Virus record (IMG/VR): IMGVR_UViG_3300046791_000665
Strand: one strand, 5' to 3'
DNA from: an uncultured virus (IMG/VR IMGVR_UViG_3300046791_000665)
Lineage: Duplodnaviria > Heunggongvirae > Uroviricota > Caudoviricetes
Length of the DNA stretch: 64,000 bases
Of this stretch, positions 4,367 to 64,000 are shown piece by piece; the stretch's first letter is position 1; the number at the start of each line of letters is the position of its first letter. The notes under the pieces were generated by a model. That model searched no databases. It saw nothing but the letters and a program-made list of their open reading frames with translations, and was not told the DNA's origin. Made by a program: the position numbers and the translations under genes.

Positions 4367-4412
4367 CGAAGGAATTGTGTACTACGGGCGTAGTGCAGGT
4401 GTCAAGGAATGC

Positions 4413-16081: not shown

Positions 16082-16737
16082 GTGAGGTTCCGATTATGCA
16101 AAAGAACGTCGTTGCCATAATCCTCGATGAGATCGAAATCAGGGAGGAGTGCACGAATCTCAGCTAATCCGATCTCGCCCTTATAGTATTCGCGTTCGCC
16201 GTACTCCGTGTAAAGGTACCGCACGCGCTTCCAAGTCTCGGCACCTCCTCGAATCAAGTCCACCTCAGCGCCTTGAATGTCGGCCCAGATGAAGTCGATC
16301 ACGCCGCCGACGTGCTCGCGCGCGAAAGTATCGAGCGTCGTCACCTGCGTCGTGCTCGGGGTAAATATCATGCCCGGCCACGCCGCAGTCGCTAACTTCG
16401 GCTCGCGAATTGACGAGGAACCATAATAGTTCTCCACGACGCGTCCTGCCTCGATGCGCACACCAGAACTCACGTAGAACGGTTGCACACCCACCTCTGC
16501 TCCAACGGCAAGCGGCCACAGCGAATAGCGGCCCACGTTCCCGACATAGTGCAAGAGTTGGCAACGCGCGAAATTCTCCGGCTCCGGTTCAAAGCTATGG
16601 AGCGCAAACGGACGCTCAAGTCCGTCAAGGATCTGAAGAAACTGTTTTGTATGATGTGCGTCGCACGCGCCGAACTCGAGCATCGTAAAACGCTCAGATG
16701 CTACGACGAGGGCACGGAATCGATCCATAATGTTCAC
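16078..16737 (-). CDS. FkbM-family methyltransferase
   Basis: EFGACD, SFEPEP, IDFIWADIQGAE, YLYTEY. Confidence 0.85.
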   Translation of the reverse strand: MNIMDRFRALVVASERFTMLEFGACDAHHTKQFLQILDGLERPFALHSFEPEPENFARCQLLHYVGNVGRYSLWPLAVGAEVGVQPFYVSSGVRIEAGRVVENYYGSSSIREPKLATAAWPGMIFTPSTTQVTTLDTFAREHVGGVIDFIWADIQGAEVDLIRGGAETWKRVRYLYTEYGEREYYKGEIGLAEIRALLPDFDLIEDYGNDVLLHNRNLT

Positions 16738-17078
16738 GACGGTTCCGGTTCCGGCTTCGACCCTGATGCCGGCACTAACTCTGACTCTTGCTCCAGTTCT
16801 GGCTCTCCCTCCGCTTCCGACTCCTCCCAGACCATCAGCCTCCCCCCGCGCGGGATCTCCGAGATCAGCCGCGCCATACCCTCGAAATCAGCCCGCAGTT
16901 CGTCGCTCGTCCTCGGCTCGTGCGCCTGACAAGAAGAGCACGAGAACCCTTCCCAGCGCGCCTTGTACGCCGTCGTCAAGCACTCGTTGTACTTCCGACA
17001 GTCGAGCCGCCGCTGCTCGGGTATCAGTTCCGGATCGTAAATTTGCTTAATTTGAGTAGGAGTAGGTTCTGGGAGCAT
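16734..17078 (-). CDS. hypothetical Cys-containing protein
   Basis: Coupled ORF with C..Y..C and CSSC. Confidence 0.55.
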   Translation of the reverse strand: MLPEPTPTQIKQIYDPELIPEQRRLDCRKYNECLTTAYKARWEGFSCSSCQAHEPRTSDELRADFEGMARLISEIPRGGRLMVWEESEAEGEPELEQESELVPASGSKPEPEPS

Positions 17079-17975
17079 CTACGTCGCGACCTCGAGCGCT
17101 GCCTTCACTTCGTCCGCCTGACTGATCTTTTCGAACGCGTGGAAGCCGCGCGCCGCCGTCACTCGGCGAAGCCCGTCGTCGCGGAGCAGGTTCGCGCACG
17201 CAGCGCCAATCTGATCGTAGGGCACCAGCGCGGTCGCTCCGGCAGCAAACGTCTCGAGCGCGGCGTCGCTGCCGCCTCCCTCCGAGACCACGCACTTGCG
17301 ATTCGCGAGGAGGAGCGAGCAGCGGAAGATCTCCCAGATCGGACTCGGGTAGAAGTGCACGTTCAGCACGATCTTCGCCCGCGCGATCCAGCGATCCCGC
17401 TCCTCACCGTAGACGCCGGAGAGGACGTGCACCCGAATTCGCCGCCGCGCCACATCCTCGATCGCCTGCCTGCGCCGATCGTTCGGATTCGTCACGTCGA
17501 TCGACCCGCAGAAAAGCACGTCGAGATCCTCGCGCTCTGCCGGCGCGATGCTCGAGAGCCCGGGCCAGTAACCGATGCGGCAGAGCAACGCGCGGTCTAC
17601 GCCGAGCGACTTCAGTCGCGCGATGTTCGACTCGCTGTAATCCCACACCGCGTGCTGGCGGAGGCGCGTCAAATAGGGTGACTGCCTCCACGCCTCGCCG
17701 AGAAGCCCGTCGACCTGCACCTGTTCGGCGTTGTAGAGGATCGAATCTTCCGGCAACACCACGTCCTCAGGAAGCCGATGCGCGTTGAACGCGATGATCC
17801 TGCGGTTGCTGCTCACCTCGTGGGCTGCGGCGATGACCTCGCTCGCCATCCCCGGCACGAACACCACGTCGTGCCCGAGCCTCTTCAGAGAATCGGCGAC
17901 GCCCGCCGCAGCCTCCCGAAGCCCCTGCCAGTGCACGTCCCCCGGCGGCGCGTAGATCCAGACGGCGAACTTCAT
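17079..17975 (-). CDS. GT-B type glycosyltransferase-like protein
   Basis: DVLFCGS, AKIVLNVHFY, CVVSE. Confidence 0.7.
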   Translation of the reverse strand: MKFAVWIYAPPGDVHWQGLREAAAGVADSLKRLGHDVVFVPGMASEVIAAAHEVSSNRRIIAFNAHRLPEDVVLPEDSILYNAEQVQVDGLLGEAWRQSPYLTRLRQHAVWDYSESNIARLKSLGVDRALLCRIGYWPGLSSIAPAEREDLDVLFCGSIDVTNPNDRRRQAIEDVARRRIRVHVLSGVYGEERDRWIARAKIVLNVHFYPSPIWEIFRCSLLLANRKCVVSEGGGSDAALETFAAGATALVPYDQIGAACANLLRDDGLRRVTAARGFHAFEKISQADEVKAALEVAT

Positions 17976-19165
17976 GCGGACTCCCCAACTGCCGCCTCGT
18001 CGATGGCCTGGAACATCGCTGGAAAACCACCCGCTTCAAGCCCATACCGGATGTGCTCGCGCATTCGTTCCGCATAGTCCGGGTCTGCGGCGGCGATCTG
18101 CTTCGCCGCAACCGCTGCGATCTGGTGCGCGCGCCAGCAGCAGGAGAGATCGACGGGCGAGGTGCTCACGGCGTTCGCCGCCTCGGACGCCACCGTCGCC
18201 GCGTGGTGGGCCAGATCATAGACCTTTCGAACGGGCACGTTCGGGACCTTGGTCGCGATCTCCGCGCGGAGGAGTGCCGTCTCCGCGCGCTTCGGGTCCT
18301 GCGCGCACAATTCGTCGGCGATCGCGAAGAGTTGCTCCGCCGTATAGTCGCCGGACACCCGCATCGCGTCGAGCCGCCGCATCTCCACGTAGCCGCGCTC
18401 GTCCGCCGTCTCGATCGGCAAGAGGAGCCGCCGCGTGTACAACTCGATGGACTTCCGCGCGTACTCGACAAGCTCGTCCCCCTCCATCAGCGAGAGAAAT
18501 CTGTCGTAGCTCTGGGCGAGGAAGATGAGCGAGCGCGCGTCGGTCGGATCGGACAGGACCGCCGCCTCGAGCAGCGGGATGTGCGTCTCCCAGATGTTGT
18601 TCAGGCGCCGCTCGGGATCGGCGACCCGGTGATCGATCCAGGCATCGGGCACCGCGGCGGACGGGGCCTTCGGATCGACGCGGTTGAAGGGTACCTCGTG
18701 CACCACGCCCTCGTAGCGCCACGCGCTGCCGGTGCGCAGAACGATGGGACGGTAGAGCGACACGCCGTCGATCATCACCTTGACGAAGTGGCAATCGACG
18801 TCGGAGTCGCGGTGCTTCTCCAGGTGATCGCGGAGGGCGGCACCGTCGCGGAGATACTCGTCGCCGGAGAGCATCAATTGAAATACGGCGAGTTCTCCCT
18901 GCTCCGGGGGGCGACCAAAATACGTCGTTGACCAATCACGGCGCAGTACTTCATTTCTTGCCGTAGCAAAATCGATGAATGCCCCTTTACAGAGACCGCC
19001 CGGCACATCCCTCATCACCTCTTCCACGATGTCTTGAGTGCCATCGGTGGATCCGGTGTCCAAAATCGTCCACCGGTCAATCCAAGGACGCACCGCCTCG
19101 AGCACCTCTCGGATGCTCGAGGCTTCGTCCTTCAAGATCATGCAGAGCGACAGCAGCGGCTTCAC
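17972..19165 (-). CDS. GT2 glycosyltransferase with TPR-like C-terminus
   Basis: LSLCMILKDE, LDTGSTDGT, DFATARN, YEGVVHE, FLAQSY. Confidence 0.88.
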   Translation of the reverse strand: MKPLLSLCMILKDEASSIREVLEAVRPWIDRWTILDTGSTDGTQDIVEEVMRDVPGGLCKGAFIDFATARNEVLRRDWSTTYFGRPPEQGELAVFQLMLSGDEYLRDGAALRDHLEKHRDSDVDCHFVKVMIDGVSLYRPIVLRTGSAWRYEGVVHEVPFNRVDPKAPSAAVPDAWIDHRVADPERRLNNIWETHIPLLEAAVLSDPTDARSLIFLAQSYDRFLSLMEGDELVEYARKSIELYTRRLLLPIETADERGYVEMRRLDAMRVSGDYTAEQLFAIADELCAQDPKRAETALLRAEIATKVPNVPVRKVYDLAHHAATVASEAANAVSTSPVDLSCCWRAHQIAAVAAKQIAAADPDYAERMREHIRYGLEAGGFPAMFQAIDEAAVGESA

Positions 19166-23405: not shown

Positions 23406-24506
23406 ATGAAGACCAAGAAGCCCACGAAGACCAAGCCCCTCTCACAGAGCGCATCCCTGTGCCGCTTCCTCGAGAACGTGTTCAAGAACTTCTATCCTGA
23501 CATGGTTGAAGTGCGGGACGTGGCAGATCTTCGAACATTCGTGGAGCGATGGGAATACAAGCCCGCTAGCGCGAAGCCGTCGGGCAGAGATCTTGTGATC
23601 AAGGGAAACCGCCTGCTACAACGCTTGCGACAGAAAGCGATCGAAGCTGCTGGAACGCAAAACTATGTCGTCCTCGTCTATGACTTCCTGAAATCAGGCG
23701 CTCCGATAGCAAAGTTCGCCATCGATGTCCCCTCCAAGGGAGCGCTCGATGTTGCAGACATATCCGAGTGGGTACCGGCCAAACAGCTAACGACGGATCG
23801 CCCGGTCCCTCCTGAGTCTGAACCTGAGGCATCCTTCACGTCGTTGAGTGCCATCGGCAGCCTGCCGGAGCGCATTTCTACTAATGTACTCGGACTCGAC
23901 TACGTCCTCGGCGGCGGCATCGTGCCGGGCTCGCTCACGCTCCTGACCGGGGACCAGGGCATCGGAAAGAGCACGCTGCTCCTACAGGCTTGCTGCGGGC
24001 TCGCGAAGAAGACGCGGGTGCTGTACGCAACTGGAGAAGAGCAAGTAAATGCCATCGCTCACCGCGCGAATCGCCTCGGTCTCGAGATCCCCACGAATCT
24101 GTTCGTTGCTCGTGAGAACGATCTCGAAGACATCATCGATGCGGCTAGAAAAACGAGAATCCTCGTGATCGACAGTGCGCAGAGCCTCCACGTCTACTCT
24201 GAGAAGAGCGGTGACATGCTCAAGTGCGTCAACTCGGCCGCGCTTAAGACTGCCCTTCAGATCCTGAATGACATTGCTGCCGAGACGGGCATCACCGTCA
24301 TCATCACTGGACACATGACAAAAGATGGCGGGATCGCCAACCCGCGCACGCTCGAATACGCGGTAGACACGAGCATCCACCTGAGCGCGCCAAAAGCGGA
24401 CTCGCCCCTGCGCAAACTCTCCTGCCCCCACAAAAACCGCCATGGCGAGGTACCGCGCGAGGCGGCGTTCAAGATGACGGAAAAGGGGCTGCAGGAGATC
24501 AAGTAG
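23406..24506 (+). CDS. RadA/Sms-like ATPase lacking Zn finger and Lon-like domain
   Basis: LDYVLGGGIVPGSLTLLTGDQGIGKSTLLLQ, YATGEE, VIDSAQ, GHMTKDG, HKNRHG. Confidence 0.85.
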   Translation: MKTKKPTKTKPLSQSASLCRFLENVFKNFYPDMVEVRDVADLRTFVERWEYKPASAKPSGRDLVIKGNRLLQRLRQKAIEAAGTQNYVVLVYDFLKSGAPIAKFAIDVPSKGALDVADISEWVPAKQLTTDRPVPPESEPEASFTSLSAIGSLPERISTNVLGLDYVLGGGIVPGSLTLLTGDQGIGKSTLLLQACCGLAKKTRVLYATGEEQVNAIAHRANRLGLEIPTNLFVARENDLEDIIDAARKTRILVIDSAQSLHVYSEKSGDMLKCVNSAALKTALQILNDIAAETGITVIITGHMTKDGGIANPRTLEYAVDTSIHLSAPKADSPLRKLSCPHKNRHGEVPREAAFKMTEKGLQEIK

Positions 24507-27641: not shown

Positions 27642-30448
27642 AGACACCCCGGGCTCTACCGGCCCGAACAAGCGGTTACCGTACTGCTGCGTTGGAGCCT
27701 CCTCAACCGCACCAGAATGACGCACGCCACGCCGTACTCGCCAAGCTCAGTAAGTGCGACCGCGCGCAGTGCATCATGCCTTGCGGCACCGGCAAGACCT
27801 ACGTCTCGCTCCTCGTCGCACAGGACGGCAAGCACAAAACGGTCGTCGTCTTCGTCCCATCGCTGGCCCTCGTTCGTCAGGTACTCGCCGAGTACCGCGC
27901 GCGCTCTTCGTGGAAGCGGTGGAGTGCGATCGCCGTCTGCTCCGACCCATCTGTTGTTGATGATGGGCTCTACATAGCTCCAGATGAAGTCGGCTGCGTC
28001 GTCACGACCGATTCGAACATCATCAAGACGTTCCTGAGTCAGGACGGTGTACGCGTCGTCTTCTGCACTTACCAGTCGGCGAGTCTCCTCAATGGACTGA
28101 GATTAGAACTCGGGATCTTCGACGAGGCGCACCGTACCGCCGGACGCCAGGGCAAAGCATTTGCCTTCGCGCTCTCCGACAAGAACGTGCAAATCAAGAA
28201 GCGTTTGTTCATGACGGCAACGCCGCGTCATGCAAGAGCGACCGATGACGGCGAAGTGCCTGTATTCTCGATGGACGACGAGAAGCTATATGGGTCAGTC
28301 GCCTACAGGCTTGACTTCCGTAAAGCGATCGATCTCGGGCTCATCTGCGACTACGAGATCATCATCTGTCCTCTGATCGAGGACGTGAACACTGATGGGG
28401 AAAAGGCTGCGCAGGTTGCCCTCCGCAAGGCCATGGTCAACTACGGCGCAAGACGAGCGTTCACGTTCCATAGCACCGTCGAACGCGCTAGGAGCTTCGC
28501 AGAAGATCGCCACGGCGCCATATACGACTACCGTAAGTTCCACATCAACGGCGCGATGTCGACATCTCAACGCGAACCTATGCTATCGCAGATGGTTGCG
28601 CATGGAGGTATCGTCACCAACGTTCGCTGTCTTTCCGAAGGGGTCGACTTCCCGGCTGTCGACGTAGTCGCCTTCATCGACCCGAAACGAAGTGTGATTG
28701 ACATCGTACAGGCAATCGGACGATGTCTACGCAAGGATAGGAACAACGAAAAGAAGAAGAGCTACATCCTCGTTCCTATCTATATACCTAGAAAACTGAC
28801 CGAAGAAGAGTCGATACGAAAAAGCAAATTCGGTCCACTCTACGACGTGCTTCAGGCCATACGAGAACAGGACAAGGTACTTGAGGCTGATCTGAGGCAA
28901 GCGTCCGAACGAGCGATGGTTACGGGTGATACCGGCAATATTGATCGTATCTCGGTCCTTGGCTACAGCGAAGAGACCCTCGACGTCTTGCAGCGCGCAA
29001 TTACGGTACGACTAGTAAAAATTGTATCAGGAATTAAAGCGGCAGACATTAAGAAACAGTTGTTGTTGAAGATGGCGCATCGCGGAGCGTCGAGACCGCA
29101 TTGGAATACTAGAATCGGAATAGCGCTGTCCAGCTACGTAAGCGCTGTGCGAGACTCCTACGACATCTATTTTGATCAAAAAATTCGACGACTAGCGCCA
29201 AACTGGTTCACTAGCAGCGCAGATCTAAACAAGAAGATCTTATTAAAAATGGCGCGTCGCGGTGATTCGAGACCGAATAGTAAGACCAGGATCGGAAATG
29301 CGCTAGTCCATTATACGAATAGACCTACTGACGCTGCCTTTGATCAAGAAATTCGACGACTCGCACCACAATGGTTTGTCAACACCACTAACGAAAACAA
29401 GAAAATACTGTTTAGCGTGGCACACGGTAGACGTCCAAAGCCGCACTATAAAACTAAACTCGGAATAGCACTTAGAGTGTATACAACACCCGGTGGATCA
29501 TTCGACAAATTTTTCAATAAAAAAATTAGACATCTTGCACCGCACTGGTTCACTAGCAGCGCAGATCGAAACAAGAAGATCTTGTTAGAAATGGCACGAC
29601 GCAGTGCCTCGAGACCGTTGAGTAATACCAAAATCGGAAATGTGCTACTCAAGTATACAGGCAGTAAGTTTAAGCTTTCCGGCACTGGCTTTGACCAAGA
29701 GATTCGACGACTCGCACCACAGTGGTTTATCGATACTGTCGACGAGAACAAGAACATCTTACTGGAGATGGCACGACGCGGTAATGCGAGACCGAAAGAA
29801 AGAACCGAATTAGGATCAAAATTACAAAGATACTCAAGTCCGAATAGCCGTTCTTATGACGACGCTTTCGACGAAGAAGTTCGACACCTTGCACCGCACT
29901 GGTTCATTAACAGCGCAGATCAAAACAAGAAGATCTTATTGGAGATGGCACGTCGGGGAGAGCCAAAACCTCTAGGCAGAAAAAACAAAGCATCAGCGCT
30001 TAACGACTACACTTCTGAAACGAGATCATTCGACACAGTTTTCAATCGAAAAATTCGACGTATTGCACCGCACTGGTTCATTAACAGCGCAGATCAAAAC
30101 AAGAAGATCTTATTGGAGATGGCACGTCGGGGAGAGCCAAAACCTCTAGGCAGAAAAAACAAAACAGCATCGGCTCTTAGAGACTACACTTCTGAAACGA
30201 GATCATTCGACACAGTTTTCAATCGAAAAATTCGACGTATTACACCGCACTGGTTCATTAACAGCGTCGATCAAAACAAGAAAATCTTATTGGATATGGC
30301 ACGTCGGGGAGATCCAAAGCCGTATTATACGACCAAAATCGGAAACGCACTAAAGCGCTATATAAACAACAATAAAAGCAGCACTTACAGCTACGACGCG
30401 ATTTTTAGGCAAAAAATCCTACGACTCGCGCCTCATTGGTTGAAATAG
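27638..30448 (+). CDS. SF2 DEAD/DEAH-box helicase with 8 C-terminal ~58-aa repeats
   Basis: PCGTGKT, DEAH, TATPR, LSEGVD, QAIGRCLR. Confidence 0.9.
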   Translation: MKTPRALPARTSGYRTAALEPPQPHQNDARHAVLAKLSKCDRAQCIMPCGTGKTYVSLLVAQDGKHKTVVVFVPSLALVRQVLAEYRARSSWKRWSAIAVCSDPSVVDDGLYIAPDEVGCVVTTDSNIIKTFLSQDGVRVVFCTYQSASLLNGLRLELGIFDEAHRTAGRQGKAFAFALSDKNVQIKKRLFMTATPRHARATDDGEVPVFSMDDEKLYGSVAYRLDFRKAIDLGLICDYEIIICPLIEDVNTDGEKAAQVALRKAMVNYGARRAFTFHSTVERARSFAEDRHGAIYDYRKFHINGAMSTSQREPMLSQMVAHGGIVTNVRCLSEGVDFPAVDVVAFIDPKRSVIDIVQAIGRCLRKDRNNEKKKSYILVPIYIPRKLTEEESIRKSKFGPLYDVLQAIREQDKVLEADLRQASERAMVTGDTGNIDRISVLGYSEETLDVLQRAITVRLVKIVSGIKAADIKKQLLLKMAHRGASRPHWNTRIGIALSSYVSAVRDSYDIYFDQKIRRLAPNWFTSSADLNKKILLKMARRGDSRPNSKTRIGNALVHYTNRPTDAAFDQEIRRLAPQWFVNTTNENKKILFSVAHGRRPKPHYKTKLGIALRVYTTPGGSFDKFFNKKIRHLAPHWFTSSADRNKKILLEMARRSASRPLSNTKIGNVLLKYTGSKFKLSGTGFDQEIRRLAPQWFIDTVDENKNILLEMARRGNARPKERTELGSKLQRYSSPNSRSYDDAFDEEVRHLAPHWFINSADQNKKILLEMARRGEPKPLGRKNKASALNDYTSETRSFDTVFNRKIRRIAPHWFINSADQNKKILLEMARRGEPKPLGRKNKTASALRDYTSETRSFDTVFNRKIRRITPHWFINSVDQNKKILLDMARRGDPKPYYTTKIGNALKRYINNNKSSTYSYDAIFRQKILRLAPHWLK
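29051..30445 (+). repeat. 8 tandem in-frame ~174-bp repeats
   Basis: NKKILLEMARRG..P...T.IG.AL..Y...FD..IRRLAPHWF units; the copies at ~29891 and ~30065 are nearly identical in DNA. Confidence 0.9.
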
Positions 30449-39330: not shown

Positions 39331-39819
39331 CTACTTCTTGATCCCCGCCTTGATCTTCTCCCACGCCTCCTGCGCCCCCGAGCCCGGCACAAAGGAGGTG
39401 ACGACGGCGCCGACCACGACACCACCGAGCCAGCCGACCACCGGGTGGGCCGGGTAGAGCAGCGCGCCGCCGATGCCGGCCGCCTCGACGCCGAGACCGC
39501 AGAGCGCGCGAGTGCGCTCGGCCGGGCCGCCGCGCACGATCGGGTAGACGTTCGACGCGAGGGCGTGCCCAGCTAACGCTCCGAGAACCCTATGATTTTT
39601 CCACGCCACCGCGCCGATCGCGGCGCCGACGAGGCCGGGAGCGAGCCCGAGCGCCGCGTGGGCAGCCGACTCGCGCACCTGCGGCTTCGGCTCGAGCTTG
39701 GCGAGCGCCTTCGGCGTACTCTCCTGCGGAGGCGGCGCCAGCGCGGCGAGAATATCCGACGCGCGACGCGCCCCGTTGAGGCTGGGTGCGATGTTTCCGA
39801 GAACGTGAGTGTAGCTCAT
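39331..39819 (-). CDS. multi-TM Gly/Ala-rich membrane protein
   Basis: Several GxxxG helices. Confidence 0.65.
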   Translation of the reverse strand: MSYTHVLGNIAPSLNGARRASDILAALAPPPQESTPKALAKLEPKPQVRESAAHAALGLAPGLVGAAIGAVAWKNHRVLGALAGHALASNVYPIVRGGPAERTRALCGLGVEAAGIGGALLYPAHPVVGWLGGVVVGAVVTSFVPGSGAQEAWEKIKAGIKK

Positions 39820-40403
39820 TACGAGGGCCTCCGCGTTGCGAGTTTATAGATGAGAGCGGCGAGTCCGCCGACCCCGAGAACGATTCCACCGCCGACGAGG
39901 ATCTGCTTGGTCGAGATCCCGCCCTGCGGCATCTGCTGCACCTGCGCACCCGGCACGATCGCCGGCTGCCCGAAACCGGGACGGTAGAACGCCGCGCGCT
40001 CTTCGGCCGCGCGTGCGTCCGCATCAAGCATCGTCGCGAGATCCGCCTTCCTCTGCGCGTCCTTGTGGAGCGTCCCCTTCGGATCCTTCTCCGTCGCATC
40101 CGCCTTCGTCTTCGCGGCGCGCGCGTCGACGGCGGCGAACGTCGCCTTCTTGCGCGCCTCCTGCGCGGCCTTGACCGCGGCGTCGCCCTCCTTGTTCGCC
40201 TCTTTGTCGGCGGCGGACTTCTTCGCCGCCTCATCCTTGGCCTGCTGCTCCTGCAGCAAGCCGCCGGCACCCTTCGCCAGTTCGGAGAACATGGAGGCGT
40301 AGAGCGGCGCGTTCGACTGCGTCTGCGCCTCTTCACCCGAGAGCGCGTCGAGCCCCTGCGCGTATTCCTTCCACGCCAACTTGTGCCTGCGAATCGAACT
40401 CAC
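39819..40403 (-). CDS. coiled-coil protein with C-terminal TM (paralog of next gene)
   Basis: YAQGLDALSGE, SMFSELAKG. Confidence 0.7.
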   Translation of the reverse strand: MSSIRRHKLAWKEYAQGLDALSGEEAQTQSNAPLYASMFSELAKGAGGLLQEQQAKDEAAKKSAADKEANKEGDAAVKAAQEARKKATFAAVDARAAKTKADATEKDPKGTLHKDAQRKADLATMLDADARAAEERAAFYRPGFGQPAIVPGAQVQQMPQGGISTKQILVGGGIVLGVGGLAALIYKLATRRPS

Positions 40404-40990
40404 GTGGACCTCCTGGACGAAAAGAGCTTGTAGAGGATCGCGGCGAGACCGCCGATCCCGAGGACGACTCCGCCCCCGATGAGGGCGTTCCTCGCGGTGA
40501 AGATCCCGCCCTCCCGCACCATCGCCGGAACGCTCTGCCCGCTCGGCAGCGACGTCTGGGGCGCGAGCCCTGCCTTCATCTCAAACCCGCGCGCATCGGC
40601 GTCGTAGAGCGCCGCGATCCGCGCCGCCTCGGCCGCCTCCTTGTGCAGCGGACCGCTCGGATCCTGCTCCGTCAGCGCCTTCAGGCGCGCAACCTCGGCC
40701 TCGGTTGCCTTGTTGTTGGCGTTCTGCCGCGCCGACTTCGCCTTGTTGACCGTCTCCTCCTGCGCCTTGCGCACCGGCTCATCCTTCTTGGCCTTCTCGG
40801 CGGCAGCGGTCTGCGCCTGCTTCCGCGCCACCGTCTCGCCCACGCCCTTCGCGAGTTCGGAGAACATGCTGGTGGCGATCGGGATGGTGTCGTCACCCTC
40901 GATGTTGTCTTCGTCCTCGCCCTCGCCCGAGAGCGCGTCGAGTCCCTGCGCGTACTTGAATGAGAGCTTGTGCGTTCTCATCGATCCCAT
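40400..40990 (-). CDS. coiled-coil protein with C-terminal TM (paralog of previous gene)
   Basis: YAQGLDALSGE, SMFSELAKG. Confidence 0.7.
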   Translation of the reverse strand: MGSMRTHKLSFKYAQGLDALSGEGEDEDNIEGDDTIPIATSMFSELAKGVGETVARKQAQTAAAEKAKKDEPVRKAQEETVNKAKSARQNANNKATEAEVARLKALTEQDPSGPLHKEAAEAARIAALYDADARGFEMKAGLAPQTSLPSGQSVPAMVREGGIFTARNALIGGGVVLGIGGLAAILYKLFSSRRST

Positions 40991-40995
40991 GTGCT

Positions 40996-41328
40996 CTACC
41001 TCTTTCTCACGATCAGGTATGTCGTCAGCCCCGCCGCCCCGAGCCCGACCACGCCGAGCACGCCGTACAAGATCATCCTCGTGCGCGCCGCGTCAGCCTC
41101 CGCCTTCGCCCGCTCCTGCCGCGCGCGCTCCTGCGCGATCAACTGCTCGGCCGTCGGACGCTGCTGCGCCTGCGCCGCCTGACCGCCCTGTCCCGCGGCT
41201 CCAGCAAGCTTTGAAATAGTATTAAGGTACGGCACGAAATCGCCGATGTTCAGACCCTCGCCCGCGAGCGCGTCGAGACCATCGGCATATTTGCGAATGA
41301 GGCGGTGCCTGCGGAGCGCGTTCATCAC
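40996..41328 (-). CDS. small protein with C-terminal TM
   Basis: YADGLDALAGE. Confidence 0.65.
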   Translation of the reverse strand: MMNALRRHRLIRKYADGLDALAGEGLNIGDFVPYLNTISKLAGAAGQGGQAAQAQQRPTAEQLIAQERARQERAKAEADAARTRMILYGVLGVVGLGAAGLTTYLIVRKR

Positions 41329-41768
41329 GCCACCCTCTTCTTTCTCAAGAAATTCCAGACCAGCATCGCGACGAGACCGCCCGTCGCTGTGACCGCCACC
41401 GTGGTGAGGATAGTACGCTCTCCGTTCAGCGGCTGCCAGTTCGCGGGCTCGACCACCGCGACGGCGGCGTCCACGCCCTCCTTCTTCATCGCGTCGCTGA
41501 TCTTGCTCCTGATCGTATCGAGCACCTTGTTCTCGATCGTCTCCGGCGCGAGCGCCGCCGCGAGCGACGCGGCGAGTCCCTGCTTCTGCGCAAGCTGCGT
41601 CGCGTTTCGCACCTGAACGATCACCGCGCGGTGGCTGACGGCAGACGCCGCCTGCTCGGGCGTGAGCCCGGTGCTGCTCCCGCGGGAGGTCGCGGCGCCC
41701 GGCGAAAGCTCGGCGCCGAGCACGTACAGCCCGTTCATGTACGCGGAACTATTGATGTTTTTAGCCAC
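41325..41768 (-). CDS. protein with C-terminal TM
   Basis: YMNGLYVLGAE. Confidence 0.65.
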   Translation of the reverse strand: MAKNINSSAYMNGLYVLGAELSPGAATSRGSSTGLTPEQAASAVSHRAVIVQVRNATQLAQKQGLAASLAAALAPETIENKVLDTIRSKISDAMKKEGVDAAVAVVEPANWQPLNGERTILTTVAVTATGGLVAMLVWNFLRKKRVA

Positions 41769-50308: not shown

Positions 50309-51583
50309 ATGGGAGTACGCGCCTACTACTGCCGCGGCTGTGCGCACACCGGACCAAATCGCTGGAGAGGGCAGTGCCCCTCCTGCCGCGGACTCTGGTC
50401 GATTAAAGAGGTCGTCGTTTCAAGCGACGAGTGCCCGGGCGGGCAGCATGTTGACTTGGAAGAGGGCGAGTTCGCGTCGCTCAGCGATATTGGCGAAGAT
50501 GTTGAGGAGCCACCCCGTCTCGTGATCGGCGGCCGAATGAGTAGCGTCGACGACATACTAGGCGGCGGAATTGTAGAAGGTGCGGTCGTACTCCTCACCG
50601 GAGATCCGGGAATCGGAAAATCTACGCTCGTTCTTCAGATCCTCCAAGAATTGTCGAAGAATTACAAAGTGCTCTACGCCGTCGGTGAGGAGACCGTAAA
50701 GAAAGTTCTCTTTCGATCGAAGCGCATCGGAAAATTCAACCAGCGGCTACTTATCGGGCGAGAAACTCAGTTAGAGAACATCTTCGAAAAAATCGAATCT
50801 CTACACGCCAAGCTCGTCGTCATCGACTCCCTTCATACGATCAGGGCCTTCAGCGAGACTACCGGAGACGAGTTGGAAGTAGGTTCTACTACCGCTCTCC
50901 GCATCGGAATGCAGGCGATCGCCGACTACGCCTCGAAGATGGAAATAACGTTCATTCTCATCGGTCACGTCAACAAAGAAAGCGGCATCGCCGGGCCGCG
51001 CACCCTCGAGCACGCCTGCGACGTCGCGATCCACTTCGAGAGCCGATCGGCCAACAAACGAGATCCGATCCGCGTTCTGAGGTGCGACCACAAAAACCGG
51101 GACGGCGATGTGCCAAAATACGCACATTTTGAGATGACGGCGAAGGGTCTCGTACCGTGGGAAGAACCGTCCGAAGACGAGGATGCAGAGGACGAGCCAG
51201 AAATCATCACCCATCGCCCCTCTCGTCGGCTGCGTGCTCTGCCGTCTATCGCACCTACACCAGCAGCGCTCCCTGCACCTGAAGCTTCCTGGGCCACTCC
51301 TGACGGTATTCCTGCCACAACCGTCCTCGCCGTACCCTGCGACATCCCAGACTGCCGCGGAACCGTCGGGCGCGCCTGTACCGCAGCTGACGGATCGAGA
51401 GAGAAAGGTTTTCACCAGACGCGCATCGAGAAAGCACGCGGCGCGATCGCGGCAGAGCCGCTTGCCGAAACTCCCGAGATACCGCTACCGCCAGACCCCT
51501 TCGAAAAAAAGTTCGGCGCACCTCCAAAACTCAAGGCCGCGCGCACCAAAAAGCGCCGCACAGAATTACCCCCGGTGCGTTGA
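50309..51583 (+). CDS. RadA/Sms-like ATPase with N-terminal Zn finger, no Lon-like domain
   Basis: YYCRGC..WRGQCPSCRGLWS, GDPGIGKSTL, VIDSLH, GHVNKESGIAGPRTLEHACD, HKNRDG. Confidence 0.88.
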   Translation: MGVRAYYCRGCAHTGPNRWRGQCPSCRGLWSIKEVVVSSDECPGGQHVDLEEGEFASLSDIGEDVEEPPRLVIGGRMSSVDDILGGGIVEGAVVLLTGDPGIGKSTLVLQILQELSKNYKVLYAVGEETVKKVLFRSKRIGKFNQRLLIGRETQLENIFEKIESLHAKLVVIDSLHTIRAFSETTGDELEVGSTTALRIGMQAIADYASKMEITFILIGHVNKESGIAGPRTLEHACDVAIHFESRSANKRDPIRVLRCDHKNRDGDVPKYAHFEMTAKGLVPWEEPSEDEDAEDEPEIITHRPSRRLRALPSIAPTPAALPAPEASWATPDGIPATTVLAVPCDIPDCRGTVGRACTAADGSREKGFHQTRIEKARGAIAAEPLAETPEIPLPPDPFEKKFGAPPKLKAARTKKRRTELPPVR

Positions 51584-57550: not shown

Positions 57551-58185
57551 TTCACCCTCACAAGCTCTCCCGTACTCACCTTGAAGCGCAAACCGTGTCC
57601 TGGACAGGTCACGACCCCGTCGCGAATAGGAAGTCCGTTGAGGGGCGTCCCGCGATGCGGGCAGGTCCGACAGTCGCGTTTCCGATGCTGTGCGTAGGCG
57701 TTCTCCAACTCGCGCACAAAGGGGAGCAGCGTGTTGCCGATGCGTGACGGATAGTCGGGCATCTTGCGGAGGCAGCGCAACCTGCGCAGCGATGTCTTGA
57801 ACGGTTCAGCAGCGTTCAGATAGGGAATCACCGCGAGCATCGCGTATCGAGGACGCAACTTCTTCTTGATGCGCGGAAGTGGGGGTATGTCGTCGTACAC
57901 CGGTTCGATACCGAGCTTCTTTCCGTGCACGCGCTCCACTTCTGCCATGAGACCGTCGATGATCTCTGGTGCTAGAAAGCGCAGGTCGTAATGCCAGTGC
58001 TCCTCGGGAAACTTGATGATGTCCGCGTCCTCGTGGGCGGGACCGAGGACGGGCACGATGTGCTCGTCGTTATCGAGCCCGGGGCCGTTAACCCATCTGG
58101 GAAGCCGGGTCACGCACGGCACCATGTACTCGCGCCCTACCTCGACGACGTCACAATCGCTGACGAGCGGAGCCTCGCCTTTCAT
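57547..58185 (-). CDS. protein with C-terminal Rieske [2Fe-2S]-like motif
   Basis: TCPHRGTPL...VTCPGHGLRF. Confidence 0.75.
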   Translation of the reverse strand: MKGEAPLVSDCDVVEVGREYMVPCVTRLPRWVNGPGLDNDEHIVPVLGPAHEDADIIKFPEEHWHYDLRFLAPEIIDGLMAEVERVHGKKLGIEPVYDDIPPLPRIKKKLRPRYAMLAVIPYLNAAEPFKTSLRRLRCLRKMPDYPSRIGNTLLPFVRELENAYAQHRKRDCRTCPHRGTPLNGLPIRDGVVTCPGHGLRFKVSTGELVRVK

Positions 58186-58186
58186 C

Positions 58187-58642
58187 CTACGCCGCCATCG
58201 CGAAGCGCGGGCGCGCGAACATCTCCAAGTACATGTCGACCAACTCCCGCGCTTCCTTGTCCGCCGCGTAGAGCCCGAGCATCCAGACCTCTTTGTGGAG
58301 ATCCCCGAGCCGAACAATCTCCTCGTCGAGGATGCGGTCGACCTCATCGATCGTGCGCCAGGGGCGACTGTCGATCAAGCGCTTCCCACCATCTTCGTAA
58401 AACGAGCGGATCTCGCCCGCGTAGCTCGGCGCGTAGAGCGCGAGCAGCCAGTCGAGCACGCTCCGGAACTCCGACTCGTCGACGATCCCGCGGAGGAGCG
58501 CGAGCCCGCGCTGGTGCCGCGACTCCTTCAGCCGCGCCTCGGTGCGCACGAGGCAGGACTCGAGGAACTCAGATTCGAGCCCGAGCTTCTGGACGAGGGT
58601 CTGTCGGAGTTCGAGGTTCTGGACGAGGCGGAGGGACATCAT
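58187..58642 (-). CDS. hypothetical protein, leaderless, with Leu/Gln-rich N-terminus
   Basis: Promoter TTGACA-17-TAGGCT at 58677-58649. Confidence 0.65.
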   Translation of the reverse strand: MMSLRLVQNLELRQTLVQKLGLESEFLESCLVRTEARLKESRHQRGLALLRGIVDESEFRSVLDWLLALYAPSYAGEIRSFYEDGGKRLIDSRPWRTIDEVDRILDEEIVRLGDLHKEVWMLGLYAADKEARELVDMYLEMFARPRFAMAA

Positions 58643-58648
58643 GGGCGG

Positions 58649-58677
58649 AGCCTACAATCTTTCGTGTTTGTTGTCAA
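58649..58677 (-). promoter_or_regulatory. sigma70-type promoter TTGACA-17-TAGGCT
   Basis: TTGACAacaaacacgaaagattgTAGGCT on minus strand. Confidence 0.7.
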
Positions 58678-59142
58678 CTACACGTACGGCGAGCACACCG
58701 CCGCCATCATCGACAGCGTGAACGCCGCGCGTCTGCGCTTCGAACGATCGGGTAGCCCCCAGGACCAGATCGCCCGCGCCATCGGATCGCGCGAGAGCCG
58801 CAGGAGGACGAGCGCCTCGACGAACGCCTCCGCGCCCGCGCGCTCGAGGCGTCGACCCCGCTCGTACTCCCGCTGCGCGCGGCTCACGGTAACTTCTCGA
58901 CGCGCGTGACCTTGTACTCGCCGTGCTCTCCGGCCGTGACGCCGAAGCTGCCGAGCGCCTCTTCGACGGCCTCCGCCTCGGTCGCGATGCCGAACACGGA
59001 GATCGGATAGACTTCGTCCTCCTCGATCACGCGCACGTACACGACCCAGTTCGGCCCCCGCGACTCGCCCCCGCGACTCTTCGATCTCCAAGATCTTCAT
59101 CACTGAAAAATCTACCACGCGAATGTTTCTGACACAATCCCC

Positions 59143-59172
59143 TTGACAGGTTCCTGATCGAGCGGTTACACC
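59143..59172 (+). promoter_or_regulatory. putative sigma70 promoter for the RAMP-like gene
   Basis: TTGACA-18-TACACC; AGGGAGG RBS before ATG 59208. Confidence 0.5.
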
Positions 59173-59207
59173 TGGAACGTTGCAGTAAACTCCAAGGGAG
59201 GAAAGCG

Positions 59208-60149
59208 ATGAGCGAGATGACGACCGGCAATGGAAGCACCGACAAGAAACCGAAGAAGCCCGCGCCCGAGATCACGAAGGTCACCGTGCAGCCGAAGAAG
59301 GCGACGGACTGGGGCGCGCTCCTCGCCTCCGCCGCCGCCGACCACTGGCGCACCCTCCGCGTGACCGTGCGCGTCCGCGAGAAGCTCCTCGCCGGCAAGC
59401 CCGCGCAACTCGACGCGGCCAAGGCGATGCTGAAGGCCCGCGGCCTCGAAGACAAGATCGAGGCGCTTCGCATCACCGACTCGAACGCGCTCAAGCTCGC
59501 GGCGGCGGCGGCGGGCGTCACCGACGCCCTCGCCACGCCCGAGACCGCCCAGGAGGTCGCGGAGGCGGCCAGCGAGACGGTCGACGAGGGGCTCTGCGAA
59601 TTCCACCGCCGCGAGGGGCGTCCCGGGCTCTGGATGCCGGCCAACAACGTGAAGGCGATGCTGAAGGAGAACTGGAGCGTGCTCGGCTACCGCGTCGAGC
59701 ACCGCGGCTCGCGCGGCGCGATGGCGGAGGGTGTCTTCGTCTTCGGCGTCGACGCGAAGGACAAGGACTGGATCCGGCTCTCCGAGAAGAGCGCGCCCGA
59801 CGCCGTCGAGGTCGCGGTCTCGCACACGACGGGGCCGAAGGGCCCGGTCTCGTCCATCAAGCGCCACGAGTACCTCCTCCGCCCGACCGTCACCTTCGAC
59901 ATCGCGATGGCGGTGCTGGCGGTGCACGAGCCGAAGAAGGCGGACGCGAAGAAGAGCGAGTCCGAGGGCGACGCCGAGACCAAGTCGAAGATCGGCCGCC
60001 TGAAGATCCCGGACGACGCGCTGGCGCGGACGCTGGTCCACGCCGCCGAGCACGGCCTCGGAGCCTGCCGCTCGCAGGGGCACGGGCGCTTCGACATCGT
60101 CTCCGTCGAGGAGACCGGCTCGAAGAGCGAGTCCGAAATCGCGAAGTAG
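59208..60149 (+). CDS. stand-alone Cas7-group/RAMP-like protein
   Basis: N-terminal strand LRVTVRVREKLLAG; LWMPANNVKAMLKE (cf. RAMP IPGSSLKGxLR); C-terminal Gly-rich loop GLGACRSQGHGRF. Confidence 0.75.
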   Translation: MSEMTTGNGSTDKKPKKPAPEITKVTVQPKKATDWGALLASAAADHWRTLRVTVRVREKLLAGKPAQLDAAKAMLKARGLEDKIEALRITDSNALKLAAAAAGVTDALATPETAQEVAEAASETVDEGLCEFHRREGRPGLWMPANNVKAMLKENWSVLGYRVEHRGSRGAMAEGVFVFGVDAKDKDWIRLSEKSAPDAVEVAVSHTTGPKGPVSSIKRHEYLLRPTVTFDIAMAVLAVHEPKKADAKKSESEGDAETKSKIGRLKIPDDALARTLVHAAEHGLGACRSQGHGRFDIVSVEETGSKSESEIAK

Positions 60150-60168
60150 GGGAGCGGCGAACCCCGGG

Positions 60169-60202
60169 CGCCCCGCGCGGCTGCGACAGAGCGCGCGGGG
60201 CG
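60169..60202 (+). promoter_or_regulatory. GC-rich hairpin at the head of the array
   Basis: CGCCCCGCGCG/CGCGCGGGGCG 11-bp stem enclosing a GCGAC; no U-tract. Confidence 0.7.
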
Positions 60203-60224
60203 GGACACGCCAGAGTGACGATCC

Positions 60225-61232
60225 GCGACGGTTCTACCCCATTTGAGCCCTGCCTGAGCAGCGCGACGACCCTCAGCCCGCACTCTCGGAACGACCCGTC
60301 GCGACGCGTCATTCCCGCACTATTCACAGCGACACACCTAGCAGAGTCGGGCGCTGCCTCACCGCCCCGCACCAGAGCGACGCTGCTCTCCAAGCATGGC
60401 CATCTCCAGGCGACGGCCCTACCTAGCTCTCGACCTGTCCTGGACTGAGCGACGAGACGAGTCCGTCGATCGCAATCCGTTGCGACAAGACGATCCAACC
60501 CGTTTCACGTCCAGCCACGGGTCCGTCTCAACGTGACACGTCGAGCATGGTCCAGCCGCCGCGACGAGCGCAGCCAGTCCTGACTCACCTCTCCCGCCGC
60601 CAGCGCGACAGTCCATCGCTATGCTGTCCGGCGCGACGATTCAGCACAGGTCGGGTTCCAGCCCGTACCGGCGCGACGCTTCATCCCAGGACAAGTCGGG
60701 ACTAGTCGGCGCGACGGTTCTTGCCGCGCGAGACCAATAACCGTACCGACCCGCAGCGACGAGCCGTTCCCTCCCTGTCTCACGTCGCTCCACAGCCGCA
60801 GCGACAAGCAAGGACAAACCGATTCCAGTCTCCGCGACATGCCCGCGCATTCGCAAGCCAACGTGACTTTTCATCCCAACTCCGCCCGCAGCCAAGTCCT
60901 CGCGACGTTGCACGTCTATCGAGGCCATTCCCCGTCGGGCCAACGCGACTACCCCACCCGACCTCCCGCGATCCCGATCGCCGCGACTTGTCAAGCCGAC
61001 CCCTGCGCGACCCAGCGCGACATGCCATCGCGATTCAAGATCGCCGCGATCCGCAGCGACATGCCCACCCGTTCCAGCCGCCGCGACGAGCCCGTTCGTA
61101 CCGTACGCGCGCCCCATTCAGTGCGACTATTCTCCCCACACCATCTCATTTCCGTCCGCCGCGACTACCCGTGACGTACCGTTACGGCTCCGCGCGACAT
61201 GCCCAGCCACCACCGATCATAACGACCGCGAC
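60225..61232 (+). repeat. non-coding array of ~27 units GCGAC+(NNNNC)n+NNN; candidate guide-RNA array
   Basis: 28 GYGAC anchors spaced 27-51 nt, mostly 28/33/38/43/48; C at every 5th position. Confidence 0.85.
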
Positions 61233-61267
61233 CGCGCTCCCCCGATCGATCGCTCGAGGAGTAAAAA

Positions 61268-61516
61268 ATGAAATTTAGAGGAGCCCCGATGCCCACCGTC
61301 CACCTCGACCGCCGCCGCGTCAGCGCCGTGCTCGCGCTCCGCGACCTCTCCTTCACCGACCTCGCCCGCCGCGCGCGGGTCACCCCGCAGCACCTGCGCC
61401 TCGTCCTGCGCGGCAGGCGCGGGGCCTCCCCGGACCTCCTCCGCGCCGCCAGGAAGGTGCTCGGGAAGCCGGGCTGGGCGTTCGCCGCCGGGGAGGTGGA
61501 TTCGATCAGCGACTAG
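61268..61516 (+). CDS. XRE-type HTH protein
   Basis: LSFTDLARRARVTPQHLRLVLRGRR. Confidence 0.75.
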   Translation: MKFRGAPMPTVHLDRRRVSAVLALRDLSFTDLARRARVTPQHLRLVLRGRRGASPDLLRAARKVLGKPGWAFAAGEVDSISD

Positions 61517-61953
61517 GACGCGCCCTTCCCGCTCTTCCTCTCGTCGAACTCGGACAGGGCCCTCGCCGCCCGCGCCACCTCCTCCACGAGCGACTCCCGC
61601 GTCACGGTCGCGGCCCGAAGCTCGATCACCACCGCGTTCGGCAAGCGGTCCGGGCCCCCGTCGAGCACGCACACGCTCGGGTTCTTCTCATTGCGCTCGA
61701 TCGCGCACTTCTCGCAGCAGAAGATCTTGGCGTTCGCGTTCCACCAGCGCGCGTTGCCGCTCAGGCACCCGCTCGAGCTACCGCACCGGCCGCCCCGCAC
61801 GCCCCCGGGCGCGTCGACGGCCTCGCTGCCCCAGGCGAGCAGGAGTTCGCGCCCCTTCCTCGACAGGCTCGTATTCGAGCGGTGAGCCGCTTCTGCGAGG
61901 AGCGCCTGCTCCGCCTCGGTCACGAGCACCTGCACGACCTTGTCCTTCCTCAT
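61513..61953 (-). CDS. RHH-like N-terminus plus Cys-rich domain
   Basis: KVVQVLVTEAEQALLAEAAHRSNTSLSR; CCEKC. Confidence 0.55.
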   Translation of the reverse strand: MRKDKVVQVLVTEAEQALLAEAAHRSNTSLSRKGRELLLAWGSEAVDAPGGVRGGRCGSSSGCLSGNARWWNANAKIFCCEKCAIERNEKNPSVCVLDGGPDRLPNAVVIELRAATVTRESLVEEVARAARALSEFDERKSGKGAS

Positions 61954-62117
61954 GGCGCCCACCGTGCCGGAAATTCCTACATATGTCAACTAGTAGGTTT
62001 TAAACGTGTAAAGCCTGATAAACGCTACTAGGTACTCGTTTAGCAGCCTCTGACCTATATATGTTCACATGTAGCTGTACGCTATATAGGCTAGGTATAT
62101 AGCCTGAGGTCGCACCG

Positions 62118-62451
62118 CAACCTCCGAGGTTGCGAGGTTGCGCTGAAAAAGGTTGTAGAGGCTAAACCCCGCGCCGCCAGCTGGAAATTCGACAACTCCC
62201 GCAACCTCTTCGATTTTTTCGACCTTTCTGGGGGAACCCTCGATTGTCTATTAGTTGCCCCTAATATATGTAGCTCTACAACCTCCAACGATATTAACTC
62301 TCAAAAGGTTGTAGTCCTATATAGAAAAAAGCGGTATATACCCCTTCCTAAAAGACTTCTTCAAAAAGGTTGCAGAGGTTGTAGAGGTTGTAAAGATCCA
62401 GCAATATCTTTGAGGTTTTTGACCTACAACCTCGGTCCCAACCTACAACCT
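62118..62451. repeat. AT-rich region with 13 AGGTTG iterons in both orientations; candidate replication origin
   Basis: AGGTTG at 62127, 62135, 62150, 62306, 62367, 62376, 62385; CAACCT at 62118, 62202, 62279, 62427, 62439, 62446. Confidence 0.7.
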
Positions 62452-63059
62452 TTTTTTCCAACGGTGTTTTAGGGGGCCGGCGCCCCCGCAAAAACAGCTG
62501 TTTCTATATTTCTAGAACTTTACCGTATTTTTGAATTAGAACTCGGACTCTCGGACCCTCCAGTGACGCTGCCCCCGTTCTCAGCCGGCGCGCACCGCTC
62601 ATTCGCAAACTGCAAACGATCGGCAACGATTCCGCATCGTTCCGCCGTCGAAGATGTTCGAAAAAGTTGACACGCTCCGACCGCGCGGTGTACAAGCACT
62701 CGACCTGCCGCGATCTGCTACGCGAGGCGATCGCGGCGGCGACAAGAGAAACGAACGAACTGGGTGGGCTCCTCCAAGGGCAGCACGGGGGGCGCGCGCA
62801 GGGAAAAGTCGGAGAAAGTCGGGCGCTCCCCACCCGGCAACACCTGACCGACCCGGCGCGCGGCCCGGCGCGCGCCCCACGCGGTGCCCTTGGAGACAAG
62901 AGACCATGCCGACTCTACCGCACCGCATCTCGCACCTGTACTCGTTCCCGCGGACCCCCTCCAAGAAAATCTCGAAGTAGCGCGCTGATCCATGAATAGC
63001 GCGTTCAAACGCCGCGAGAGCGGCGCGGAGCCCTGTCGCCTCTATGGGGCGCAGCATTG

Positions 63060-64000
63060 ATGTCGGCAGCGTCCGAGACGCCTCCGGTGACGCCTGCGCC
63101 GCCCCCGGCGGTCGTGCAGGCGGCAGCCGACGACAAGTTCGAGATCGTCTTCTACCGCGACCAGGAGTCGACCGCCCCGGGACACTGCAGCATTTCCTGG
63201 GAGCGCTTCGCAGAGTTCGTCACCACCTGCGCGGAGGCGAGCCCCTGCACCGTCGCCGATGGTCCGTTCAAGTGCGCGGGGAAGAAGTGCGTCTACAAGA
63301 GCCACTCGGCGCTCCCCGCGAACGCCGACAACAACATGGCCTGGGCCCCGACCGAAATCGAGGGCAGCCGCCTCGACAAGAACGTCCGCTTCCTCACGGC
63401 CCTGGTACTCGACTTCGACCACGTCTCGTGGAGCGTCGGCGAGGCGATCGACGAGAAACTCTCCGCCTGGGAGCACATCGCCCACACGACCCACAACCAT
63501 CGCGGCGGGGACGACAACTGCCTCCGCCACATCCTCCGCCTCTCGCGGAAGGTGCACGCGAACCAGTGGCACCGCTTCCTCCCCGCCGCGATCGCCTACC
63601 TCGGCGTGACCGTCGACAACGGCGAGGGCGAGCGCCAGCCCGATCCGACCTGCAAGAACCGCTCGAGGTTCTACTATCTGCCGTCCCACCCCGGCGATGC
63701 CCCCCGCGGCGCCGCCCGCGTGCCCGGCAAGGTGCTCGACGTGGACGAGGTGCTCTCGTGGGCGGAGCAGCACCTGCCCATGCCCGCGCCATTCGACGAC
63801 TCGGTGCGCGAGGCGCTGCCCGAGATCTCGGACTGGGACCTCGACGGTCCGGACATCCTGGAGGCGATCGACCTCGCGTCGAACTATTTCCCGACGAGGC
63901 GGCGCCACGAGTTCGCTGCCGCCCTGGCCGGAATGTTGCGCCGGGCCGGAGCCTCTGAAGACGACGCGCGCTGGCTCGTGCGCGAGATCTGTGTCCGGGG
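63060..64000 (+). CDS. AEP-superfamily primase (probable primase-helicase N-terminus), runs off window end
   Basis: Own translation: ALVLDFD, HTTHNH, LRHILRLSRKV, DPTCKNRSRFYYLP. Confidence 0.8.
   Translation, partial: MSAASETPPVTPAPPPAVVQAAADDKFEIVFYRDQESTAPGHCSISWERFAEFVTTCAEASPCTVADGPFKCAGKKCVYKSHSALPANADNNMAWAPTEIEGSRLDKNVRFLTALVLDFDHVSWSVGEAIDEKLSAWEHIAHTTHNHRGGDDNCLRHILRLSRKVHANQWHRFLPAAIAYLGVTVDNGEGERQPDPTCKNRSRFYYLPSHPGDAPRGAARVPGKVLDVDEVLSWAEQHLPMPAPFDDSVREALPEISDWDLDGPDILEAIDLASNYFPTRRRHEFAAALAGMLRRAGASEDDARWLVREICVR

Follow-up and report, generated by a model that had tools for sequence, protein, structure and literature searches.

VIPR systems are newly described programmable gapped-code DNA binders related to CRISPR and were first reported in 2026 (bioRxiv 10.64898/2026.04.26.720920). 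As set out in the text of that preprint, a lone phage RAMP, Vipr, is combined with vrRNAs of 9–16 YNNGG repeats plus a 3′ tail and recognizes double-stranded DNA with every third target base skipped; seven types are distinguished, alternative NNNGG, YNNNG and NNNNG repeats and staggered arrays are also described, and a PSI-BLAST search seeded with X1U2U4 yielded a family of 2,664 members. Filaments of Vipr and vrRNA, according to the text of the same preprint and of a second one (10.64898/2026.04.26.720927), contain one protomer per pentamer with GGY buried, and the DNA is silenced. VIPR loci are stand-alone genes or two-gene operons of viruses and proviruses, and their vrRNAs are expressed and co-purify with Vipr. 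A map of intergenic space, COMPASS (10.64898/2026.10.21.760802), lists in its text 99 period-5 clusters, 21 of them non-canonical, with the cores GAC/NN, CAC/NN, WGT/NN and TGH/NN. In the present study we analysed a 64,000-nucleotide (nt) stretch of an uncultured Caudoviricetes genome, IMG/VR record IMGVR_UViG_3300046791_000665 (the window), in which a stand-alone, Vipr-like gene for a Cas7-like RAMP (59208..60149, + strand) is followed on the same strand by 28 GCGAC-anchored units of 10–79 nt each (60183..61266), which are candidate guide (vrRNA-like) units. Whichever strand supplies the guides, this is very probably a VIPR-like system of RAMP and guide array; the fuller reading, in which a large soil phage has an RNA-guided system of the VIPR type and one Cas7-like RAMP is served by short units read in five-base steps from the gene's own strand, lies in our judgement only just on the likely side of even. 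The preliminary description of this DNA, which had proposed a one-protein RNA-guided system here, is thus supported in part, and the likeness that it drew to viral RAMPs with 5-nt-repeat RNAs (VIPR, GGY/NN) is borne out by the text of the first VIPR preprint (10.64898/2026.04.26.720920).

Set beside the type II VIPR of Escherichia phage SUSP1 and a Pseudomonas fulva prophage (Vipr, vap1 and vrRNAs), the locus shares a phage-borne lone RAMP with a glycine loop, a thumb hairpin and a helical insertion, flanking non-coding 5-nt arrays with fixed and hypervariable positions that are co-directional with the gene, and pentamers of three scaffold and two kept positions. Both also lack cas genes and a CRISPR array: as the preliminary description had stated for the window, none of its 70 proteins matched a Cas family in PADLOC, and there was no CRISPR-like array among the four rows that Tandem Repeats Finder (TRF) gave for it. 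The scaffold, however, is GGY in type II and xYC on the gene's strand in the window family. As far as the text of the preprint goes, the format differs as well, with units of 5–8 pentamers and no structured 3′ tail here against 9–16 repeats and a pseudoknot tail there, and with 28 units in the window (up to 56 in its relatives) against four vrRNAs. Unlike type II, the window family has no conserved vap partner, although a vap gene is not obligatory, since the VIPR paper says in its text that loci ‘typically’ include one. No run of at least four GGYNN units was found on either strand of the window, and GGY/NN defines the canonical VIPR types only, because the paper itself admits NNNGG, YNNNG and NNNNG.

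The staggered alternative-repeat arrays of that preprint (10.64898/2026.04.26.720920), compared here by its text, with figures S17–S18 and data S4 apart, likewise consist of degenerate pentamers with one or two fixed bases, and their units abut without spacers and have bases in common at the junction. Their overlap is 1 nt, whereas the GCGAC junction of the window family gives 5k+3 units with a 2-nt overlap, and the fixed bases of the window family are C on the gene's strand. The non-canonical COMPASS clusters, according to the text describing them, also place a Vipr-like fold beside period-5 arrays with a fixed trinucleotide other than GGY, some cores ending in C, and are oriented with the neighbouring genes, as here; their motifs are repeated about ten times, and GCGAC is absent from that text, figure S10 aside. 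The Cas7 subunits of class 1 CRISPR systems (Csm3, Cmr4, Csf2 and type VII Cas7) are only 8–16% identical with the window RAMP and use a 6-nt step instead of a 5-nt step; neither other cas genes, Cas5 and a large subunit included, nor an array of 25–40-nt CRISPR repeats was found in the window. The kind of system is already known, and degenerate and C-ending scaffolds are also in print; no description of a GCGAC-anchored array was found in the literature, the figures and data tables of the VIPR preprint aside.

The RAMP protein and its predicted fold

The RAMP gene encodes 313 amino acids and is preceded by a ribosome-binding site, AAGGGAGGA (59194..59202, + strand), read directly in the sequence, with the ATG 5 nt downstream; the open reading frame (ORF) and ribosome-binding site are therefore as first described. 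Searches of Pfam, PHROGs and PADLOC gave no significant match for the protein, and the best sequence match in the PDB had an E value of 0.24; canonical Vipr proteins are likewise without a Pfam family. An AlphaFold2 model (pLDDT 81) gave 68 PDB matches at E ≤ 1e-3 in Foldseek, those listed all being Csm3, Cmr4, type VII Cas7 or Csf2 subunits, and three viral RAMP-like models in BFVD matched with E values of 3e-11 to 1e-6. The closest solved folds were Csm3, type VII Cas7 and Cas7-11, i.e. RNA-targeting Cas7 subunits. On the evidence of this model the protein has a Cas7/RAMP fold, as had been proposed.

Reading the secondary structure of the model by eye, we placed a helical insertion at approx. 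residues 60–125, an RNA-recognition-motif core that includes a helix at 145–158 (NNVKAMLKENWSVL), a long β-hairpin (‘thumb’) at 199–224 and a glycine loop, GLGACRSQGHG, at 283–293. An alignment of 52 family members has its invariant residues at P144, N146, K149, A150 and E154 and at G283, G285, R288 and G293, that is, in helix-1 and the glycine loop, so that the two motifs singled out beforehand as RAMP hallmarks are indeed the most conserved columns. A predicted complex of three copies of the protein scored 0.34, below the mark of 0.42.

A five-base-periodic, strand-asymmetric array

The 1.1 kb between the RAMP gene and the following helix-turn-helix (HTH) gene is non-coding and strongly patterned. 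At neighbouring lags the self-identity of the intergenic DNA is approx. 0.27, but lag 5 reaches 0.366 and lag 10 reaches 0.354, and the periodicity score exceeds that of 1000 shuffles with z = 7.4; about 20 of the 40 best 300-nt windows in the 64 kb, including all of the top-scoring ones, lie at 60101–61001. These data clearly bear out the claim of a 5-nt-periodic non-coding stretch behind the gene. The anchor also shows strict strand asymmetry: GCGAC occurs 28 times and GTCGC twice in 60150..61267, compared with 178 and 171 times in the whole window. Pentamers of the array read NNNYC on the gene's strand. Counted from GCGAC, 26 of 28 units have a C at +9, and of 27 units 24 have one at +14 and 18 at +19; on the upstream side the counts are 25 of 28 for −4 and 22 of 27 for −9. 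The register is thus displaced by 3 at the anchor. Spacings between anchors were 5k+3 in 14 of 27 cases and off register in the other 13.

Among sense-strand triplets, TAG was seen 6 times where 26.6 were expected and TAA 3 times where 12.5 were expected; as TGA is not depleted (13 against 9.6), the triplets are not simply codons. A search of Rfam gave no match at E ≤ 1 in 58000–64000. Directly 3′ of the RAMP stop codon lies a GC-rich hairpin with an 11-pair stem and no U tail (60169..60202, + strand), which carries the first GCGAC in its loop. The hairpin noted previously thus exists, but the 80-nt stretch containing it folds no better than shuffles (z −1.1). We also observed a perfect 13-nt direct repeat, GCCCCCGCGACTC, which contains GCGAC and occurs in two copies at 59054–59079, within a minus-strand ORF (58678–59118); the promoter-like TTGACA that precedes the RAMP gene follows 65 nt further downstream.

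Linkage, unit structure and turnover among relatives

Relatives of the RAMP protein numbered 212 by search, and a profile built from 52 of them retrieved 777 representative clusters (50% identity) at E ≤ 1e-3 among 1.84 billion, 389 of the 777 at E ≤ 1e-10. The sequence extends 250 nt or more beyond the stop codon in 28 distinct loci, and 24 of these have 6–19 copies of GCGAC and 0–3 of GTCGC in the 600 nt that follow it. This count leaves aside two loci in which the stop codon is lacking (L007 and L021), four with less than 250 nt downstream (L010, L013, L017 and L018), the partial matches L036–L039, and L027, which is on the same contig as L002; as several loci are close relatives of one another, the independent cases of linkage are fewer than the number counted. 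The downstream pattern is lacking at L001, L003, L009 and L020, and at L001 the array lies upstream of the RAMP gene in the same orientation. In a wider clade, approx. 30% identical and matching the RAMP family with an hhalign E value of 4e-52, period-5 regions adjoin the gene at 19 of 22 loci (L058, on the same contig as L002, and the fragment L064 being left out); 23 of 25 such regions are C-rich on the gene's strand, and a chain of at least seven GCGAC motifs adjoins the gene in nine of the 22 loci. A periodic array therefore adjoins the RAMP gene in its relatives too, which was the check proposed in the preliminary description.

Arrays of the family comprise 7 to 56 units. Of 607 pooled units, 376 are 5k+3 long, and unit lengths peak at 28 nt (63 units), 33 nt (116) and 38 nt (97). 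Pooled pentamers of the sense strand read N N N Y(83%) C(90%), in agreement with the earlier statement that their code is unlike GGY/NN; the pentamer immediately behind the anchor tends towards A/G/T-A-G-C-C. Near-identical units at different loci gave 14 independent pairs, a small sample, in which substitutions fell at pentamer positions 1–5 in 4/88, 7/88, 15/88, 14/74 and 3/74 cases respectively (positions 1 and 2 against 3 and 4, Fisher p 0.0012). The two bases after the fixed C are thus kept, and the next two drift within the pyrimidine bias, which points to a scaffold of three and a guide of two, as in GGY/NN; the GCGAC junction can then be seen as two scaffolds with no guide bases between them, which explains the 5k+3 unit length.

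Unit content turns over rapidly in at least one comparison: L005 and L006 are 97.4% identical through the gene, leader and first units, and the remaining approx. 800 nt of their arrays share nothing. Genes downstream of the array also differ among relatives, so that the HTH gene of the window is to be regarded as a neighbour and not a conserved partner. Some relatives have small ORFs between the RAMP gene and the array, namely a conserved one of 112 and 126 amino acids with no Pfam family (L022:2959-3294 and L029:4780-5157) and unrelated ones in L031 and L035, that of L035 being DUF3310; these are possibly accessory genes of sub-lineages. In the wider clade, a G-rich (45% G) period-5 region lies approx. 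2 kb upstream of a RAMP gene of the C-array type (L050:1-251) and may be another canonical array beside a C-rich one.

Canonical and C-anchored systems on one contig

One metagenomic phage contig (L030) has two systems in tandem on one strand at 1866–5849. The first is canonical: its Vipr matches that of SUSP1 in BLASTP (E 3e-11) and is followed by another ORF and by a GGYNN array of the staggered kind, whose units are 5k+4 long with the junction GGCA|GG. The second, directly after it, consists of a RAMP of the window's family and a GCGAC/NNNYC array. A third GCGAC chain is found on this contig at 8003–8713. In the second system a 13-pair hairpin with a U-rich tail separates the first unit from the RAMP stop codon, in the same place as the hairpin of the window. 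The canonical array of L030 and that of SUSP1, where YNNGG repeats are on the strand of the vipr gene, are G-rich on the gene's strand, whereas the arrays of the window's family are C-rich.

We tentatively suggest, and rate at somewhat less than an even chance, that the whole branch of Vipr-like RAMPs (777 clusters) reads a C-anchored xYC/NN code on own-strand RNA, the mirror image of GGY/NN, with very short units (5–8 protomers) split only by the GCGAC register break. As L030 carries both systems side by side, the C-anchored and canonical machines would in that case be orthogonal to each other in one cell.

Proposed mechanism and the choice of guide strand

We propose that the array is transcribed on the strand of the RAMP gene and in the same transcription unit, in which case the product would be a C-rich RNA of the form GAC-NN-(xYC-NN)k-xGC. 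One RAMP protomer would then bind each pentamer, holding the scaffold (C5 strongly, Y4 weakly and x3 hardly) and presenting the two bases that follow it. At the GCGAC junction two scaffolds would abut without a guide dinucleotide, and this break in register may limit the filament to approx. 5–8 protomers and mark the separation of units. Gapped pairing would direct the resulting small ribonucleoproteins (RNPs) to nucleic acid from competing mobile elements, which would be silenced as in type II VIPR.

Among readings that involve an RNA guide, we consider it probable, although far from certain, that the C-rich sense strand is the guide, and several features of the arrays argue for this. In seven loci with an upstream array the last unit ends approx. 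15–35 nt before the RAMP start, directly at the ribosome-binding site, and therefore leaves no room for a separate promoter; in the window, L030, L025 and L011/L012 the array runs right up to the start of the next gene on the same strand. As the arrays abut same-strand genes in this way, sense-strand array RNA must exist whenever those genes are expressed. In addition, the orientation of the array relative to the RAMP gene is fixed, whether it stands before or after the gene, and both canonical arrays examined, those of SUSP1 and L030, are co-directional with vipr.

A number of observations weigh against this proposal, some of them concerning the system as a whole and others only its strand. 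No transcript, RNP or target has been seen. Each unit offers only 5–8 guide dinucleotides (10–16 nt), which is short for unique targeting, and the window array, with only 14 of 27 spacings in register, is less regular than those of its relatives. Profile comparison with canonical Vipr was not significant, hhalign giving E values of 0.11 (A1 against SUSP1 Vipr), 0.05 (A1 against A2, a shallow canonical Vipr profile of six sequences) and 0.013 (A3 against A2), although the glycine loops were aligned in these non-significant comparisons. SUSP1 Vipr itself has no significant sequence similarity to the window RAMP, and its glycine-loop residues that read G1/G2, D177 and W178, correspond in a non-significant alignment to A and C.

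With regard to the strand, the principal alternative is that the system is of the same kind but takes its guides from the opposite strand, as GC-NNN-(GRNNN)k-GTC, a degenerate GGY/NN equivalent to the published NNNGG/NNNNG staggered ‘alternative vrRNAs’, with gene and array convergent or divergent. Read in that direction, the pentamer becomes G(90%) R(83%) N N N; conservation declines over its first three bases, as it does in GGY, and the pattern agrees with the NNNGG/NNNNG repeats given in the Methods of the first VIPR preprint (10.64898/2026.04.26.720920), the text of which also describes YNNNG repeats and staggered arrays. The canonical junction of L030, GGCA|GG with 5k+4, is formally like GTC|GC with 5k+3. 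The hairpin between the RAMP gene and the array of L030 resembles an intrinsic terminator and speaks against simple read-through at this locus, the far end of the same GCGAC array has a promoter-like site on the opposite strand that points into it, and at L023 the gene after the array is convergent. However, the L030 site is within chance expectation, three promoter-like sites having been found against 2.0 ± 1.8 expected, and scans for promoters and terminators did not exceed chance level in the window, L030, L044 or L051. Moreover, an independent antisense array would need no fixed orientation on both sides of the gene, and would have to be reconciled with arrays that abut the RAMP ribosome-binding site or the next same-strand gene and with the co-directional canonical arrays. 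The minus-strand RNA of the window array is also predicted to be far more structured than the sense strand, at −489 compared with −339 kcal/mol over 1030 nt, values calculated with no shuffle control. Opposite-strand guides are in our view unlikely, but they are the alternative to be taken most seriously.

At the window locus itself a weak promoter-like sequence, TTGACA followed after 17–18 nt by TTACAC/TACACC, can be read at 59143..59172 (+ strand), but a sigma-70 consensus scan of 58900–62100 returned no site despite the TTGACA at 59143–59148, and the assertion that the RAMP gene has its own promoter was accordingly not upheld.

It is also conceivable, although we regard it as quite improbable, that the RAMP–RNA complex acts on RNA, or that it serves to regulate transcripts of the phage itself and not to attack competitors. 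Cas7 backbones of types III, VII and III-E act on RNA, and the closest solved folds of the window protein belong to that group; fold similarity, however, carries no information on the type of target, and the characterized VIPR systems bind double-stranded DNA, according to the text of the reports on them. Gapped searches of the variable positions, which had been suggested at the outset, gave nothing above shuffled controls: for 295 distinct regular units, read by rules of 3, 4 or 5 read bases with 0–2 skipped, there was no excess over shuffled guides in approx. 230 kb of window and relatives, with arrays masked and both strands covered. This lack of a DNA target favours action on RNA, but the same search gave no self-match either, which argues against self-regulation. 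Nine canonical GGYNN units of L030, allowed skips of 0–3, were likewise without targets in a local search, so that the search space was simply too small.

Least probable of all is that the array is a DNA-level element (iterons, protein-binding sites for example for the HTH protein, replication or packaging) or a decaying remnant, since, for all that 13 of 27 spacings in the window are off register and an HTH gene follows, the array travels with the RAMP gene and not the HTH gene down to approx. 30% identity, its strict strand asymmetry (28 against 2) and its 5-nt step with hypervariable positions are in keeping with a RAMP filament reading it, the copies of a DNA-binding repeat are as a rule identical, and unit content turns over between 97%-identical phages.

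Phage context and other features of the window

The window looks like part of a large phage. The RAMP protein is found on a 158,943-nt contig, its relatives are on IMG/VR contigs of 4–199 kb, and the window encodes an endolysin-type peptidoglycan-binding domain, a primase-like protein, DnaB/RecA-like ATPases and glycosyltransferases. No member of the RAMP family was found in 185,579 species genomes, and the wider clade was represented there by one contig of a metagenome-assembled genome.

The small HTH (XRE-like) gene after the array (61268..61516, + strand) begins 15–35 nt beyond the final unit; a second possible start, preceded by GAGGAG, is at 61290. Its assignment, made in the preliminary description, is backed by matches to HTH_31 (E 5.6e-5) and HTH_3 (E 3.1e-4), both of which are below the curated Pfam cut-offs, and to HTH/regulator families in PHROG (E 2e-3).

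Elsewhere in the window, two paralogous KaiC/RecA/DnaB-like ATPase genes (23406–24506 and 50309–51583) match phrog_26214 (E 3e-30 and 1e-36) and AAA_25. An auxiliary block at 6150–19165 is unusual for a phage, with an asparagine synthase (E 2e-52), a methyltransferase–glycosyltransferase fusion and further glycosyltransferase-like genes, and a weak viperin/radical-SAM-like match (PADLOC pVip, E 5e-7) lies at 11432–12109. A 177-nt tandem repeat of 2.4 copies with 94% matches (29889–30318) stands at the edge of a low-GC stretch (49.5% GC at 28–30 kb, compared with approx. 63% elsewhere). Within the presumed structural/lysis block, a run of small minus-strand genes at 39819–41768 forms a tandem paralogue family, three of the genes sharing the N-terminal motif R-H-K/R-L ... 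Y-A-x-G-L-D-A-L-S/A-G-E.

Significance

The locus adds to VIPR a well-populated family of soil phages whose scaffold is different and whose arrays, which have no tails, are extremely compact. Should the opposite strand be the one used, the family would be an ordinary example of the published NNNGG/NNNNG staggered type. If, on the other hand, the C-rich strand is the guide, these phages would possess a second recognition code, orthogonal to GGY/NN and already coexisting with it in nature, which would be of use in multiplexed tools and in studies of scaffold reading by RAMPs.

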